DNA from: Candidatus Bathyarchaeota archaeon RBG_13_52_12
Lineage (GTDB): Archaea > Thermoproteota > Bathyarchaeia > TCS64
DNA length: 29,876 nt
Direction of reading: 5' to 3'
Assembly (NCBI GenBank): GCA_001774245.1
Contig: MEZF01000047.1
Span: 69,601 to 99,476, forward strand
The notes below the pieces were generated by a model. It worked only from the letters and a program-made list of their open reading frames with translations, did not search any database and had not been told where the DNA came from. Positions 4,084 to 25,507 of the stretch are shown piece by piece. Made by a program: the position numbers and the translations under genes. Within the stretch, counting starts at the first letter, position 1, and each line of letters opens with the position of its first letter.

Positions 4084-4908
4084 ATGGAGCGCAGGGAATT
4101 AACGAGAGGCATCAGCATACCCATTCTCGGTCTTGGGACGTGGGGGATGGGGGGTCGGGAGAACCCCGACAAGACCCGTGACAGGGAGACCGTCACCGCA
4201 ATCAGGATGGCGCTTGAGCTCGGCCTCACCCACATCGATACCGCCGAGTATTATGGTGCTGGCCACGCCGAGGAGCTAGTCGGAGAAGCTATTGAGGGTT
4301 GGGACAGGGAGAAGCTATTCATCACCTCGAAGGTCTGGCATAACCACCTCCACAGAGATGACCTGTACCGCTCCATGAGGGCGAGCCTACAGCGTCTCGG
4401 CGTCGACCAAGTCGACCTCTACCTCGTTCACTGGCCAAACCCTGACGTGCCCCTCGCCGAGACGATGGAGGCGATGGAGGAGTGCGTTAAGGAGGGCCAT
4501 ACACGGTTCATCGGGGTTAGTAACTTTAGCGCCCAGCTCATGGTGGATGCCCGGAGCTGCCTCAAAGACAATGAACTCGTGGCTAATCAGGTTCAGTACA
4601 GCCTCCTCGACCAGAAGCCGAGGATGGAGCTCCTCCCTGCCTGCCGACGAATGGGGATCAGCTTAGTAGCCTATCGCCCACTCGAGAGGGGGGCTATCCT
4701 CCAGACACCTAACGTGGTCATGGACGAGATCGCGGAGGCCTACGGCAAGACGCGAGTTCAGGTCGCCCTTAACTGGCTCATAGCACAGGATAACGTCTTC
4801 ACGATCTCGAAGTCATCGAACCCTATTCACCTCTTGGAGTTCATGGGCGCCCTCGGCTGGCGCCTTACACCGGAGGAGTGGATGCGCCTCGCGGAATCCT
4901 ACAGGTGA
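4084..4908 (+). CDS. Aldo/keto reductase
   Basis: LGLGTWGMG, IDTAEYY (Asp/Tyr), ITSK, YLVHWP, IGVSNFS and NQVQYS. Confidence 0.95.
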   Translation: MERRELTRGISIPILGLGTWGMGGRENPDKTRDRETVTAIRMALELGLTHIDTAEYYGAGHAEELVGEAIEGWDREKLFITSKVWHNHLHRDDLYRSMRASLQRLGVDQVDLYLVHWPNPDVPLAETMEAMEECVKEGHTRFIGVSNFSAQLMVDARSCLKDNELVANQVQYSLLDQKPRMELLPACRRMGISLVAYRPLERGAILQTPNVVMDEIAEAYGKTRVQVALNWLIAQDNVFTISKSSNPIHLLEFMGALGWRLTPEEWMRLAESYR

Positions 4909-4915
4909 TTAGGCG

Positions 4916-5818
4916 ACGGGGTTCCCAGCCGACAAGACAGGCCTCACCAATTGGTTCGTTATGAAGGGGAGAGGTCTAGGGTTCTACACCGAGACGAGCT
5001 ACATGAGCCCCGAGGGCGACGCCGTCGCAGACGTCGCCTGGGGCCTCAACGCCGGCCAAAAACCAGTATTCACCTTCGCATTCGAGGAGACGGACCCCAC
5101 GATGATATTTGCCGGGGCTCTCCAGTGGGTTGGGTCCTCGACTGAGCCGAGGTCCTGGATGCACATATACGTGTTTCTGGGCGGGCCTTTAGAGGCGCCT
5201 GCGGACCTTCCCTTCCCAAGCAACATCAAGATCTATGATTCACAGGGAATTGCTGACCTTCCCCACGACCTAGAGGAGCTGACAGCGCATATGGCTCAGC
5301 TTCTAAGCCGATATGGGGGTTTATCGACCGGCGTCACTTTAGAGGAATCAGTTAAGCTCACGACGTATATTACTGAGGGTTGGCCGAGAGGTAAATCGAA
5401 TACACGTCTCAGCTACAGGGCCTCAGCACGGCTAGGGTTGGGTCTCTTACTTTTCACCTCCGAGAACGAGGATGACGAGGGGGCAGTGAAACCCCCCTTG
5501 AGGCCAAGCCGGAACGTGGTCCCGCTGGAGGTAGTAAGCGGTGGCGCCAATTTCGGGGGTGCCCTGATTCGCCTCATCGAGGCTGAGGATGGTCACCTCC
5601 TCTTCTCTACTGAGCACAGGAACTACCCCTTCATATTGCGTTTAAAAGTTGCGGAGAGGGGCGGGCCTTCAATGCTCGACCTTTGGTTCGACGCGGACAA
5701 GTCGAATGTTCCACAGGCGCTCGAGTTCTCTGCGCTACTTGAAGCCGTCGAGTCATCAAAGTTGGTCAGACTACTTGGGCCCTCGGATGAGGTAGCGGAG
5801 TTAATTATTCACGGCTAG
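4916..5818 (+). CDS. Hypothetical protein, N-terminus with a possible PD-(D/E)xK-like fold
   Basis: Long ORF with host-like codon usage. GFYTETSY..ADVAW..FTFAFEE resembles a restriction-endonuclease-like core. The first ATG is at 4961; an in-frame ACG at 4916 lies 6 nt after AGGTGAT. Confidence 0.7.
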   Translation, partial: TGFPADKTGLTNWFVMKGRGLGFYTETSYMSPEGDAVADVAWGLNAGQKPVFTFAFEETDPTMIFAGALQWVGSSTEPRSWMHIYVFLGGPLEAPADLPFPSNIKIYDSQGIADLPHDLEELTAHMAQLLSRYGGLSTGVTLEESVKLTTYITEGWPRGKSNTRLSYRASARLGLGLLLFTSENEDDEGAVKPPLRPSRNVVPLEVVSGGANFGGALIRLIEAEDGHLLFSTEHRNYPFILRLKVAERGGPSMLDLWFDADKSNVPQALEFSALLEAVESSKLVRLLGPSDEVAELIIHG

Positions 5819-7095: not shown

Positions 7096-7160
7096 GTTTT
7101 AATCTATCCCGACTCAGATACCTGCGATAATCTCACAGGATTAATAAGGGTTGATGGCTT

Positions 7161-8825
7161 ACGAGGCGGTCGAACTTTTCCTGGTGGTCACTTCCCATCG
7201 CAACCGGCGTCGTGGCCGGCTTTGCCGCCTCGGTGATAAATGGGCTCGTCTACTACTCCTGGGAGACCTTCTACCAGGACGCCTTGAAGACTCCAACTCT
7301 ATTCTTCGTCTTTCCCTTCACCGGTCTCGTCCTCAGCTACTTCCTCATCCACCTATTTGCCTGGTATAAGACGCCAAAGAGCAGCTTCCACAATATACTC
7401 GAGGTCTTCCACCTGGCACCGAGTGGTTTGATACCCAGGGAGGCGATCGTGAAAACTGTCTCAGGGATAGCTACATCGATCTTCGGTGGTTCGGCTGGGC
7501 CGGAGGGGCCATCAGCGGTCATCTCGGGTGGGTTCTCAAGCTGGTTGAATAAGATTCTGCGCCTCAGGATGGGGTCAGGCAAGGTGCTTATGATAGGTGT
7601 AGCTGCAGGCTTCTCGGCGAGCTTCAAGACCCCCCTCACTGGGCTCCTCTTCGCCCTCGAGTTCCCTTACCGGAGGGACATTGAGAAAGAATCGTTCATC
7701 GAGGCTGCTATAGCTAGCTCAACAGCGTACCTAGTCTCCGTGGCGGTGGGGGCCCCTAGCCTCGTCCCCAGCCTCCAGCTCGATGTGGCAGCCCTGCCAA
7801 TGGTCTGGTTGCCGATCTCTATGGTCTTCGGGCTCGCTACAGGCGGAGTCGTATTCCTCTTCACCAGCGTCTATGGTGCCTGTGAGAGGCTCGCGAGGCA
7901 GGTCGTTATACGTGGTGGCTACCCACTGATGCTCATCATTGGAGGCATCGTACTTGGTGGGGTGGGCTACGTTTCACCCCAGTCAGTTGGCCCAGGTTAC
8001 CAGATGGTCCCCCTCATGTTGAGTGGCTCTCTTATGACTCTTGGCGTCGTCTTGTTGCTCCGAACACTTACGACGGGTATAACGATGAATTTCGGCGGAA
8101 CTGGAGGCCTCTTCCTACCAACGCTGCTGTTAGGTGGAGCCTGGGGGGCAATGGTGGGCACCGCCCTGATGCCTTCGATGACGCCGATCTTCATACTAAT
8201 GGGCATGGCCGCATTCTCTGCAGGTGTGCACAAAATGATGCTGACCCCCATCGTCTTCATAGCAGAGGTCTTCGGGCCCCACACAATTATACCAATAATA
8301 CTATCGACAGTCGTCTGTTTCTTCGTCTCAGGTGCCTACAGCTTCTACCCCATCCAACCGGCGAACAAGGTAAGCCAGGAGGAGCTTGCCCTCGAGAGGT
8401 TCTACTATAAGGTCACGAGGAGCAGACCGAAGGAGCTTGAGAAGCTCACCGCGAGAGACATAGCGACCCGGAACCCCCAGAGGCTACACGCCAACGTCAG
8501 CATCAGGGAGGCCATGAAGGCTTTCGGTGAGACGAGCTTCAGGCTTATGCCGGTAGTCAATGCGGACGAGAAGGTAGTAGGCTACGCCACCCTCGAAGGC
8601 CTAGCATTCCTATCGAAGACGGCTCTCGATGACCCGCTGAACACGGTGGAGCTGCAGCCACCCCTTGTCTTCGGTGAGGATGAGCCCGTGATGAATATGA
8701 TCGAGAAGATGATAGAAGGAAAAGAGGATCATTGCTTCATCGTCGATGGCGAGCAGAAGCTCACGGGCATTATTTCAACCATCGATGTGACGCACCTACT
8801 GATGAGTTACTACATCCAAGTCTGA
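7161..8825 (+). CDS. CLC-family chloride channel/transporter with two CBS domains
   Basis: GGSAGPEGP, FKTPLTG, GGTGGLFLP, MGMAAF and a C-terminal CBS pair. The ORF track starts at GTG 7212, but the frame is open and helix-like back to ACG 7161. Confidence 0.9.
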   Translation, partial: TRRSNFSWWSLPIATGVVAGFAASVINGLVYYSWETFYQDALKTPTLFFVFPFTGLVLSYFLIHLFAWYKTPKSSFHNILEVFHLAPSGLIPREAIVKTVSGIATSIFGGSAGPEGPSAVISGGFSSWLNKILRLRMGSGKVLMIGVAAGFSASFKTPLTGLLFALEFPYRRDIEKESFIEAAIASSTAYLVSVAVGAPSLVPSLQLDVAALPMVWLPISMVFGLATGGVVFLFTSVYGACERLARQVVIRGGYPLMLIIGGIVLGGVGYVSPQSVGPGYQMVPLMLSGSLMTLGVVLLLRTLTTGITMNFGGTGGLFLPTLLLGGAWGAMVGTALMPSMTPIFILMGMAAFSAGVHKMMLTPIVFIAEVFGPHTIIPIILSTVVCFFVSGAYSFYPIQPANKVSQEELALERFYYKVTRSRPKELEKLTARDIATRNPQRLHANVSIREAMKAFGETSFRLMPVVNADEKVVGYATLEGLAFLSKTALDDPLNTVELQPPLVFGEDEPVMNMIEKMIEGKEDHCFIVDGEQKLTGIISTIDVTHLLMSYYIQV

Positions 8826-20656: not shown

Positions 20657-20731
20657 TGGGGCCTCTGCTGGGAGTCGAACCCAGGTCAAGGGATCCACAG
20701 TCCCGTATGCTACCGTTACACCACAGAGGCC
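20657..20731 (-). tRNA. tRNA-His (GTG) with encoded G-1 and CCA
   Basis: G-GCCTCTG/CAGAGGC-C-CCA, anticodon loop CTGTGGA, CTGGG-TTCGACT-CCCAG; C27:U43 mismatch. Confidence 0.95.
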
Positions 20732-20881
20732 GCGCGGAAAATGTGATACAGGGGATACATTAAAAGGGTTTCGCGAACAGAGGCACGGTCACAACATGTG
20801 AGTACTGGGCGCGAGCATCGCCGGTGAGTTCCGCTTATAAAGGAATCAACGTACCTCCCAATGTAAAGGAGGTGAGCCGAG

Positions 20882-22138
20882 ACGAGCGCCGAGAACAAGA
20901 AAAGCGGTATCATCGGGAGGTTTAGGTCCGAGTTCGGCTTCATAACTGGCAACTTTCTCATCATGGCGTTGAGCTGGCTCATCCTCGACTTCGCCACGGA
21001 GTTACCCGGCACCTACTACCCCTTATACGTCCAGGCTCTGGGAGGCACCGGCGCGACAATCGGCTTAATCGGCGCCGTCGAGGCAACCTCAAGGGGCATC
21101 GTGCAAATACCCGGCGGCTACCTCGCAGACAAGTATGGCCGTAGGTGGCTCATAGCCTCCATGACCTTCGTCGCCGCCTTCAGCCGCGTCTTCTACATCT
21201 TCGCCCCAACTTGGGGGTGGATACTCGTCGGCGCTTTGCTGGTCGGTGTGACGAACATCTATGGCCCCGCGCTGATGGCGATCGTGGCCGACTCAGTTCC
21301 TAAGGAGAAGCGGGGCATGGCCTACAGCATCATAAATCTCATAAGCAGCGTCTCGACGACTCCCGCGCCCCTCCTCGCCGGAGTGCTGTACGCCAGGATG
21401 GGGCTCATCCCCAGCATGAGGCTCGGATACGGCGTCGCACTGATCGGCTTAGTCGCGGCTGCGGTGATGCGCCTACGGCTCAAGGAGACCGTGGTGAAGC
21501 CTGAGAAGTTTAACGTGGGCGACCTAGCAGCCACCGTGCCCAGCTCGATGCGGGAGAGCATAGGGGTATGGCGGATCGTGCCGAGGTCAGCCTTCATCTT
21601 CTTCATATGCAACTTCGTCGCCAGCTTTGCAATCGGCCTATTCCAGCCAGTCCTCATTCTCTACGTTGTTAATGACCTTGGCGTCGACCCTGTGGCTCTC
21701 TCCTACTTAATGACCGCGATGTTCGTGACCATGATCATTGTAGCTATTCCGAGCGGCAAGCTCATCGACAAGATAGGGCGTAAGAAGCCGCTTATCATCG
21801 CCGGAGTGGCCTCTATAGTTTGGGTGCCCCTCCTCGTCTGGGGCGACTTCCTGAGGCTTATGCTCGCCATGACCCTCACCGGGCTCCTTATAGTCCTCTT
21901 CACCTCAGCTGGCAACACCCTCTTCGCCGACCTCATACCCAAGGAGCACAGGGGAAAGGCGAACGGCTCCCTAGGGTTCTTCAGCATGATCGCCATGTCC
22001 GCTGGCCAGATCACGGGGGGCTGGCTCTACGATAACGTCAATCACCAGCTCCCCTTTTGGGGGGAGGCGATCATGATGGTGCCAGCTATACTTCTGATTG
22101 TATTCCTAATCGAGGAGCCCGAGAAGGCAGAGGATTAG
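20882..22138 (+). CDS. MFS transporter
   Basis: GGYLADKYGRRWLI and GKLIDKIGRKK. The frame extends upstream of ATG 20963 to ACG 20882, 6 nt after GGAGGTGA. Confidence 0.92.
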   Translation, partial: TSAENKKSGIIGRFRSEFGFITGNFLIMALSWLILDFATELPGTYYPLYVQALGGTGATIGLIGAVEATSRGIVQIPGGYLADKYGRRWLIASMTFVAAFSRVFYIFAPTWGWILVGALLVGVTNIYGPALMAIVADSVPKEKRGMAYSIINLISSVSTTPAPLLAGVLYARMGLIPSMRLGYGVALIGLVAAAVMRLRLKETVVKPEKFNVGDLAATVPSSMRESIGVWRIVPRSAFIFFICNFVASFAIGLFQPVLILYVVNDLGVDPVALSYLMTAMFVTMIIVAIPSGKLIDKIGRKKPLIIAGVASIVWVPLLVWGDFLRLMLAMTLTGLLIVLFTSAGNTLFADLIPKEHRGKANGSLGFFSMIAMSAGQITGGWLYDNVNHQLPFWGEAIMMVPAILLIVFLIEEPEKAED

Positions 22139-24310: not shown

Positions 24311-25507
24311 ATGTCTTCTTTGAGCAAATACCTAGCCCTAGAGGGGAACATACGGGTCCTGGCGCTACAGACCCTGATCTCCCAGCTGGGCTTCGGGATG
24401 CTCTTCGTCGTATGGCAGCCCTACATACTGTCCACGGGGCTGACCATAGTCGACCTTGGCATAATCCAGAGCGTCATCAACCTCAGCACGGCGACGGGGC
24501 TCTTCGTCTGGGGCCCCCTCTCCGACATCTTTGGGAGAAAACGCGTGATGCTGCTAGGTCACGCCTCACGAGTCGTCGCCGTACTCGCCCTCGTGATATC
24601 GGGCAACCCCGTCTTCCTCTACGCCTTCGCCTTCTTCATCGGCTTCAGCGCTCTGTGGATGCAGTCGAACCCGGCGAGGACCGCCCTGTTGGCGGAGTCG
24701 GTGTCGAACGAGAAGAGGGCGACAGCCTACGGTACCTTAATGGCGATCGGTCAGGGGACGAGCATGGTGATGGCTTCAGTCGGGGGCTACATCGCCATCG
24801 TCTCAGGCTACTGGCCCATATTTGCTGTAACCGTCGTCTGCGAGACGATAGGCATCACCATAATGCTGCTATTCGTGAGGGAAACACACCACACAGCTGG
24901 AGCCAATGGGAGGGAGGTCGGGTCCCGGATAATCTCAAACCTGAGACCCGAGAGGGAGATGATGCCCCTCTACCTGATGATGGTGATCATGGGCATAGGC
25001 TACGGCGTCGGTTTCTCCCTCTTCTACGGGGCTCTCACTGACACATACGGGTTCACTACCTTCGAACTCGGGTTAATGTCGACAGCGTCGAGCGTTGCTT
25101 GGGCGTTCGGCTCGATACCGAGCGGTAAGCTCTCAGAGCGGCTCGGTACTCGTAAGATGGTGCTAGCATCGACTGCAGCCGCACTAATCACTGCTCTTGG
25201 CTTCATCCTCTTCCGGAGCTTCCCCGCCTTCCTGATCTTCAGCGTCTTCAATGGCCTCGACCCGTGCTTCTGGATCCCCAACTGGACGAGCATCATCGCT
25301 GAGAGGACTCCGGTCAAGGTCAGGGCCTCCATCTTCGGTAAGCTCGACGCCTACAACAGGTTCGCCGGTATACCGGCGCCTTTCCTCGGTGGGCTCATAT
25401 ATGCGGGGTATGGCTTCACGGCTCCTCTGCTAGTTCATCTGGTGTTCCTATTGATCTGGGGGTATATGTTAGTCAAGATCACTTCGAAGCCGAAAGCGGT
25501 TACTTGA
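24311..25507 (+). CDS. MFS transporter
   Basis: GPLSDIFGRKRV, GKLSERLGTRK and ~12 TM segments. Confidence 0.92.
   Translation: MSSLSKYLALEGNIRVLALQTLISQLGFGMLFVVWQPYILSTGLTIVDLGIIQSVINLSTATGLFVWGPLSDIFGRKRVMLLGHASRVVAVLALVISGNPVFLYAFAFFIGFSALWMQSNPARTALLAESVSNEKRATAYGTLMAIGQGTSMVMASVGGYIAIVSGYWPIFAVTVVCETIGITIMLLFVRETHHTAGANGREVGSRIISNLRPEREMMPLYLMMVIMGIGYGVGFSLFYGALTDTYGFTTFELGLMSTASSVAWAFGSIPSGKLSERLGTRKMVLASTAAALITALGFILFRSFPAFLIFSVFNGLDPCFWIPNWTSIIAERTPVKVRASIFGKLDAYNRFAGIPAPFLGGLIYAGYGFTAPLLVHLVFLLIWGYMLVKITSKPKAVT

Follow-up and report, generated by a model that had tools for sequence, protein, structure and literature searches.

ACG as a very probable start codon for some proteins of a Bathyarchaeia lineage

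A lineage of the Bathyarchaeia very probably starts some of its proteins at the codon ACG. In the gene treated most fully here, which encodes an MFS transporter, translation likely begins at ACG 20882 by near-cognate initiation, guided by a Shine-Dalgarno (SD) sequence and carried out by the ordinary initiator tRNA (tRNAi, anticodon CAU), with ACG acting as a fourth start codon in the family. Judging from the genome and its relatives, an ACG start is probably used in at least nine genes of this genome, about 0.5% of them or roughly one gene in two hundred. To our knowledge, AUG, GUG and UUG are the only archaeal start codons that textbooks recognise and that any prokaryotic gene finder accepts. 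The source genome (G000) is a Bathyarchaeia metagenome-assembled genome (MAG) with a total length of 2.08 Mb, spread over 111 contigs and 85% complete, and the window is the whole stretch of 29,876 nucleotides that was analysed; unless a contig is named, coordinates are those of the window. The signals around the start of the MFS gene are as follows.

20835-20841, plus strand: putative archaeal TATA box TTATAAA, 41-47 nt 5' of the ACG, with a predicted promoter role
20861-20866, plus strand: two-codon mini-ORF ATG-TAA, in the MFS frame, between the TATA box and the SD
20868-20875, plus strand: SD GGAGGTGA, whose final three bases form the in-frame stop TGA 20873-20875
20882-20884, plus strand: ACG, the proposed MFS initiation codon, its position kept in all six ACG-bearing orthologues
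20882-22138, plus strand: full MFS transporter coding sequence, 418 codons and a stop, read from the ACG
20885-20962, plus strand: N-terminal extension, 26 codons after the ACG, with the SEFGFIxGNF motif and the start of TM1, lost from a start at ATG 20963
20963-20965, plus strand: first canonical in-frame start, ATG, used by public gene callers for the 391-aa versions

The SD, a spacer of 6 nt (gccgag, 20876-20881) and the in-frame ACG that opens the peptide TSAENKKSGIIGRFRSEFGFITGNFLIMALSW had been described in an earlier note on this DNA, and were found as claimed when the sequence was re-read. The same note held that the frame is closed upstream by TGA 20873 and offers no ATG, GTG or TTG before 20963, which is borne out by frame translation: from 20861 this reads M*RR*AE and then the peptide, with the frame closed by TAA 20864 and TGA 20873, and none of the three codons is present in the MFS frame from that TGA to ATG 20963. 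Over the corresponding interval, a canonical in-frame start is likewise absent from the orthologues in G010, G012, L001, L004 and L002/L003. At the site of the TATA box, alignments and upstream strings reveal a block, GGTGAGTTCC(G/A)CTTATAAA, that is common to all close orthologues, and the position of the box predicts a leader of about 17-20 nt, SD included. The orthologues also retain an SD-like, G-rich block at the position of the SD. The mini-ORF is kept only in the subclade of the source genome (with G010, L001 and L004) and, since it is absent from L002, G012 and P0003/P0004, does not appear to be needed for the ACG start.

The MFS product matches Pfam MFS_1 (PF07690) with E = 4e-56 and a score of 190.9 bits (the cut-off being 33.4), in two stretches which cover both six-helix halves and place the 20882 gene in that family. 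More than 1000 of its homologues are annotated as MFS permease, and orthologues of 415-432 aa span 98-100% of the protein when it is read from the ACG.

The extension between the ACG and ATG 20963 contains the motif SEFGFIxGNF, which is present in all full-length orthologues (415-432 aa) and lies, in the protein alignment, upstream of the Met that matches 20963. Homology of this N-terminal part with the paralogue at 24311, proposed from the sequence alone in the earlier note, is recovered by BLASTP, where MFS residues 16 onward (SEFGFITGNFLIMAL) align to the paralogue from its residue 5 onward. Across 14 conserved extension codons of the ACG-bearing orthologues, variation at codon positions 1, 2 and 3 stands at 1:0:8, and the codon columns hold 7 synonymous-only changes against 1 replacement. 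By this substitution pattern the 27-codon extension (ACG included) is real coding sequence under protein-level selection, and the third-position bias combined with the conserved motif argues that it is translated in exactly those lineages which have no canonical start.

Furthermore, ACG is found at the identical column in six further assemblies, namely G010, G012 and four other metagenome contigs, with protein identities of 77-94%. The ACG-bearing set comprises the source genome, G010, G012, L001, L004 and L002/L003, whose assemblies (JGI, ENA and NCBI) are independent of one another. The nearest canonical-start sequences, P0003 and P0004, have an ATG at the exact ACG column of the alignment, and the orthologues in G006, G015 and G003 have GTG or TTG a few codons off that column. 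ACG is also the sole near-cognate codon of the extension to be kept in position across the ACG-bearers, the codons ATC, AAG and AGG being variable. The protein tree unites the ACG-bearers, with a support of 0.85, in a single clade that adjoins the ATG-bearing P0003, with the other canonical-start sequences outside, and the two arms of the clade are separated by about 0.3 substitutions per site. Read from this tree, the history of the MFS start is one ATG-to-ACG change followed by long retention. A metagenome scan for C versus T at 20883 was made with the 16-mer GGTGAGCCGAGAYGAG; the MFS locus is absent among the 80 loci listed of at least 120 matching stretches, and those 80 are chance matches, the 16-mer being too short.

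Genome-wide use of ACG was examined with simple home-made gene models of the source genome (1,784 ORFs). Its unambiguous ATG starts have the SD core GGTGA at positions of about -11 to -7, which equals the spacing seen at the MFS ACG. Raw genome-wide counts of an SD motif, N nucleotides and a triplet proved uninformative, given that SD-like words lie mostly inside genes and even ATG is barely enriched. The test set was instead made up of the in-frame codons from the upstream stop to the first canonical start, each scored for a correctly spaced SD word (5 nt or longer). The SD-preceded fraction was 17.6% for ATG, 16.1% for TTG and 11.7% for GTG, with ACG ranking right behind these three, and 2-7% for each of the other non-canonical codons, whose pooled background is 4.3%. 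ACG reached 8.0% (19/238) against that background (p = 0.008) and, within extensions of coding-like codon usage, 8/31 against a background of 5.4% (p = 1.8e-4), the highest of the non-canonical codons, while start ACGs are kept in 19/19 orthologue comparisons versus 41/90 (46%) of the internal ACG codons of the same gene pairs; because related genomes are not independent, as the single change and retention in the MFS genes illustrates, both the p-values and the retention figures overstate the support. Seventeen of the 19 comparisons were scored directly, and the other two are indel-offset MFS pairs which are ACG-to-ACG in the alignment. The direction of the retention contrast is, in these alignments, unambiguous. 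ACG is the sole non-canonical codon with SD enrichment in this genome, there being none for CTG, ATA, ATT or ATC; an excess of ACG at SD-optimal positions, which the earlier note had put forward as a check, is therefore present.

Nine candidate genes were tested against their orthologues: three MFS genes and the genes for CLC, MgtE, ERCC4, RACo, NUDIX and a hypothetical protein. All nine (9/9) have orthologue support. The features concerned, apart from those of the MFS gene at 20882, are the following.

4903-4909, plus strand: AGGTGAT, SD of the 4916 gene, overlapping the stop (TGA 4906-4908) that ends the upstream ORF
4916-5818, plus strand: hypothetical protein gene, 300 codons, proposed ACG start; first canonical ATG at 4961
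7142-7156, plus strand: 15-nt motif TAATAAGGGTTGATG upstream of CLC, identical in 11 genomes, holding ATG 7154-7156
7161-8825, plus strand: CLC chloride-channel/CBS gene, 554 codons, proposed ACG start; Pfam Voltage_CLC and CBS
G000:C47:38882: MFS2, domain upstream of the first canonical start; G010 and G015 have ATG exactly at the ACG of the source genome
C111:9160: ERCC4 nuclease; GAGGTGA, 6 nt and ACG in G010 and G015, where the spacer codons vary; G005 has ATG-ACG
C76:1364: RACo/2Fe-2S; ACG in G010, TTG in G012
C28:60188: NUDIX; start column of 29 genomes from several genera with ACG in 17, ATG in 10, GTG in 1 and TTG in 1
MgtE: GGAGGTGA, 9 nt and ACG in G010 and G005; GGGAGGTGG, 9 nt and ACG in G015
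MFS3: ACG in G006 (two copies), G005 and G015

In four of these genes (MFS2, ERCC4, RACo and NUDIX) a Pfam domain reaches further 5' than the first canonical start does, and an ACG is suitably placed. NUDIX is, from its alignment, the clearest of the nine cases, codons other than ACG, ATG, GTG and TTG being absent from the start column of all 29 genomes. MFS2 is without a clear SD, which counts against the mechanism proposed below. Five of the nine ACG-start genes encode membrane transporters, a share which hints at possible selection for weak initiation.

Two of the nine lie in the same window as the MFS gene, and the earlier note had named their ACGs, 4916 and 7161, as SD-positioned. Both codons exist and the description holds for the former, which stands 7 nt after AGGTGAT and is matched by a same-column ACG in G010, G012 and G015, G006 and G005 having an ATG within one codon of the place. 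It is only partly right for 7161, which is preceded by only a weak SD-like GGGTTGA and by the conserved out-of-frame ATG 7154. Eleven genomes have the CLC ACG, the most distant at 60% identity, and GTG 7212, the first canonical start, is not conserved. Elsewhere the CLC start column holds TTG-ACG (G008), GTG-ACG (G006) or CTG (G027), and G017 has an ATG. ATG 7154 is out of the CLC frame in most genomes and in frame in G017, where CLC presumably starts at the ATG of the motif; the ORF that the out-of-frame ATG opens runs from 6 to more than 100 codons and is not conserved. Both the weak SD of CLC and the out-of-frame ATG that is strictly conserved 7 nt before its ACG count against the model, which does not explain them.

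The mechanism that we consider likely for the MFS gene would begin with a short-leader mRNA carrying the strong SD GGAGGTGA. Pairing of this SD with the 3' end of 16S rRNA would bring the ACG, which follows after 6 nt, into the P site, where the ordinary Met-tRNAi (anticodon CAU) would be accepted even though the middle bases form a C·A mismatch. The MFS protein would then begin Met-Ser-Ala-Glu and possess both the SEFGFIxGNF segment and a complete TM1. In the Bathyarchaeia family ACG would join AUG, GUG and UUG as the fourth start codon, and probably a weak one. Against this scheme stand the presence of the fidelity factor aIF1 and the fact that, of all mismatches, those at the middle position are tolerated least by bacterial initiation. 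What we infer in it is that Met-tRNAi decodes the ACG directly, that the first residue is Met and that expression is weak or regulatory. Systematic initiation at ACG as a near-cognate codon, as the earlier note had suggested, gains support from the conserved column, the SD enrichment and the nine candidates with orthologue support.

As regards the machinery itself, the usual initiator tRNA anticodon arm, GGGCTCATAACCC, was found in 27/41 genomes of the family, G010 and G012 included, and L088 carries a full A1...U72 tRNAi. ARAGORN recovered about 21 tRNAs from the source MAG, which is 85% complete, and among them neither an initiator tRNA nor a tRNA-Thr(CGU); the 16S 3' end is not assembled there. 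With both missing from this MAG, the SD/anti-SD pairing is deduced from the upstream profile and the tRNAi from relatives. An initiator tRNA with a CGU anticodon was considered through the arm pattern GGGCTCGTAACCC, which has four matches in 41 genomes; it is not supported by the two that were examined (those in G013 and G071 being left out), which both fall outside any ARAGORN-predicted tRNA gene. Loss of the fidelity factor aIF1 as a cause of relaxed fidelity was ruled out, SUI1/aIF1 being present in G000 and in 56/61 relatives. A normal initiator arm, two examined CGU matches that are not tRNAs and the presence of aIF1 together make SD-guided acceptance of the mismatch by Met-tRNAi the simplest mechanism.

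An alternative route to the same protein is C-to-U editing of the mRNA, by which ACG would become AUG before translation. This explanation agrees equally well with the conservation of the ACG and its exchange with ATG, and enrichment of ACG as the sole non-canonical codon is what would be expected if only the change from ACG to AUG mattered. Editing of GCG and TCG, however, would give GUG and UUG, and neither of these codons is enriched behind an SD (4.1% and 4.9%, respectively, against a background of about 4.3%). The surroundings of the ACGs are variable and share no recognition motif beyond the SD. Moreover, we know of no mRNA editing in archaea. Archaeal C-to-U editing is known from tRNA only, in Methanopyrus, which leaves the process without precedent for archaeal mRNA. 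No DYW-type deaminase (PF14432) was matched in G000, a reading limited by the 85% completeness of the MAG and by control genomes which gave no match either. Editing is unlikely; if true, no earlier mRNA editing system would be known from Archaea.

Equally to be weighed is translation from the downstream ATG 20963, which would yield a protein of 391 aa and make the ACG irrelevant. ATG is the strongest start codon, the corresponding Met28 is invariant in the alignment, and this ATG was the gene callers' choice for four database proteins (P0001, P0002, P0020 and P0022), all 391 aa long and devoid of 27 residues that include part of TM1. Orthologues starting at the downstream Met, which the earlier note had listed as evidence that would overturn its reading, are not what these entries represent: the DNA behind three of the four (P0001, P0002 and P0022; P0020 was left out) has the same open frame, the extension and the ACG (L001, L004 and L002/L003), which identifies them as gene-caller truncations. 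Against a start at 20963 stand the clear protein-level selection on 14 upstream codons in lineages without a canonical start, and the homology of the extension to the N-termini of all orthologues and of the paralogue. In addition, this ATG has no SD in front of it and lies about 100 nt into the predicted transcript. Since Met28 falls within TM1 of those orthologues which start upstream at an ATG, it is an internal residue there. Taken together, these observations make initiation at ATG 20963 quite improbable.

Initiation might also occur at another in-frame non-canonical codon (ATC 20909 or 20912, AAG, AGG), or the frame might be reached by a frameshift from an out-of-frame ATG. ATC is listed as a start in NCBI table 11, the ACG of L002/L003 is preceded, at a distance of 5 nt, by an ATG in another frame, and CLC has its conserved one. 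The ATC ATC of the source genome is, however, GTC ATC in G010, CTC AAC in L002 and CTC ACC in G012, and conservation coincides with SD spacing at the ACG alone. An ATG is missing from the vicinity in G012, and a common slippery site is lacking. As a general explanation, a programmed +1 frameshift from the upstream CLC ATG was rejected, because the two codons that follow it differ in almost every genome and the ORF in G010 ends after 6 codons. Such origins of the frame are very improbable, nothing but the ACG being conserved.

The earlier note had kept base-calling error and ATG-to-ACG mutation as alternatives. T-to-C is a single transition, and the MAG is in draft form, with 111 contigs. That the ACG reflects faulty sequencing or assembly, or that a decaying gene was recently inactivated by the change from ATG, has next to no probability and is effectively refuted: the same base recurs in six further assemblies from different projects, samples and assemblers (G010, G012 and the four other metagenome contigs), the 418-codon ORF is intact and under purifying selection in all ACG-bearers, and eight other intact genes have the same pattern.

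Initiation at ACG through an SD and the ordinary tRNAi would have consequences for annotation as well as for the understanding of start-codon fidelity. Proteins that start at ACG would be systematically truncated or missed in public annotation, as with the four database entries without 27 residues described above. If true, the eukaryotic-type archaeal machinery, here positioned by an SD, tolerates the same middle-position mismatch as eukaryotic ribosomes, and such tolerance in archaea would bear on the evolution of start-codon fidelity. ACG may also serve as a built-in means of low expression.

Of the known systems that resemble this one, start editing in plant organelles converts ACG to AUG in transcripts such as ndhD and psbL and needs PPR-DYW factors. 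The likeness consists of a genomic ACG where relatives have ATG, its conservation across species, and a truncated gene call if it is ignored. The difference lies in those factors, for which no match was found here, control genomes being likewise without a match.

Bacteria, on the other hand, possess non-canonical starts that are decoded directly, such as the AUU of infC and the rare AUA, AUC and CUG of NCBI table 11. As in these, a weak codon would here be offset by a good SD at optimal spacing and be conserved, possibly setting a low or regulated level of expression. The infC-type codons, however, differ from AUG at position 1 or 3, while ACG differs at position 2 and is outside table 11.

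ACG initiation proper is known from eukaryotes and their viruses, for example in AAV VP2 and Sendai virus C'. There the normal Met-tRNAi reads the codon if its context is favourable; the codon lies upstream of the first AUG, usually with less efficient initiation. Archaea have eukaryotic-type initiation factors, namely aIF1, aIF1A and aIF2. Common to both would be the middle-position mismatch with a normal Met-tRNAi, which for the archaeon is our inference, and a protein that begins 5' of the first AUG. In eukaryotes, however, scanning and Kozak context select the codon, which in the archaeon would be positioned by the SD; and there ACG provides the start of an alternative isoform, whereas the MFS ACG would be the only start of its gene.

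Among archaea, Haloferax is a distant and mostly leaderless euryarchaeon. Ribosome profiling of Haloferax volcanii assigned about 30% of the alternative sites identified with harringtonine to near-cognate codons (Gelsinger et al., 2020; PMC7261190), and these were set aside in that account as possible false positives. The sites resemble the present case as a hint that archaeal ribosomes can initiate at such codons, and differ from it in that the text concerned with them mentions neither ACG nor conserved cases at the level of single genes (PMC7261190). The start codons given in a review of archaeal initiation are AUG, GUG and UUG only (PMC7531240). A literature search for ACG start codons in archaea found no published description. 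Near-cognate initiation as such is already known, and what the present alignments and upstream signals suggest to be new is its SD-guided form in an archaeon.

Canonical start codons lie immediately 5' of the conserved ACG in several related genomes: ATG-ACG in the ERCC4 gene of L047 (genome G005), TTG-ACG in the chloride-channel (CLC) gene of L120 (G008) and GTG-ACG in that of L067 (G006). Such pairs suggest that start codons have repeatedly come and gone beside an ACG, and that the ACG can take over their role. Of the nine ACG-start genes with orthologue support found genome-wide in G000, the genome containing the window, five encode membrane transporters (three MFS proteins, CLC and MgtE); this share may reflect a preference for weak starts in low-abundance membrane proteins.

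Two short reading frames lie close to or across the proposed ACG start of the MFS transporter gene (window position 20882).

20861-20866, in frame with the MFS gene and just 5' of its Shine-Dalgarno sequence: minimal ATG-TAA "start-stop" ORF
20716-21012, minus strand: 98-codon ORF with a GTG start, antisense to the beginning of the MFS gene

The start-stop ORF lies close to the predicted transcription start of the MFS gene and is kept only in the closest relatives (the own genome, G010, and loci L001 and L004). The minus-strand ORF is probably not a gene, because within the region that it shares with the MFS start, variation falls at third codon positions of the MFS frame.

Upstream of the CLC gene, whose proposed ACG start is at 7161, lies a motif that is also present at the loci L066-L070 and L119-L126.

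7142-7156, upstream of the CLC gene: 15-nt motif TAATAAGGGTTGATG

This motif shows no differences across 11 genomes. In most genomes the ATG that it contains (7154) does not share the reading frame of the CLC gene, but in G017 it does. The ORF that this ATG opens varies from 6 to >100 codons between genomes, without conservation. The motif may represent either a promoter or transcription start element, or a regulatory upstream ORF.

Two further loci show an actual or a suspected change of frame. Outside the window, a SAM-methyltransferase-like ORF (G000:C43:7190-7300) has no canonical start in its 79 coding-like codons. Directly 5' of it, one base out of frame, stands an ATG preceded at 6 nt by a perfect GGTGA, an arrangement that suggests either a genuine frameshift or an indel at an AGGG run. 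The ERCC4 orthologue L048 (G012:C4:18370-18999) is interrupted after about 35 codons, where the frame changes, and is either a pseudogene or the product of an assembly indel.

Another MFS gene of the own genome (L044, G000:C13:4927-6156) has about 90 clearly coding codons 5' of its first canonical start. With no ACG around the expected N-terminus, and CTG or ATA codons as the only near-cognate candidates, it may use a CTG or ATA start or be a decaying gene. The CLC orthologue L126 (G027:C35), from a different genus, carries CTG at the column holding ACG in genus g1 and lacks a canonical start nearby; CTG may serve this Bathyarchaeia family as a second near-cognate start codon.
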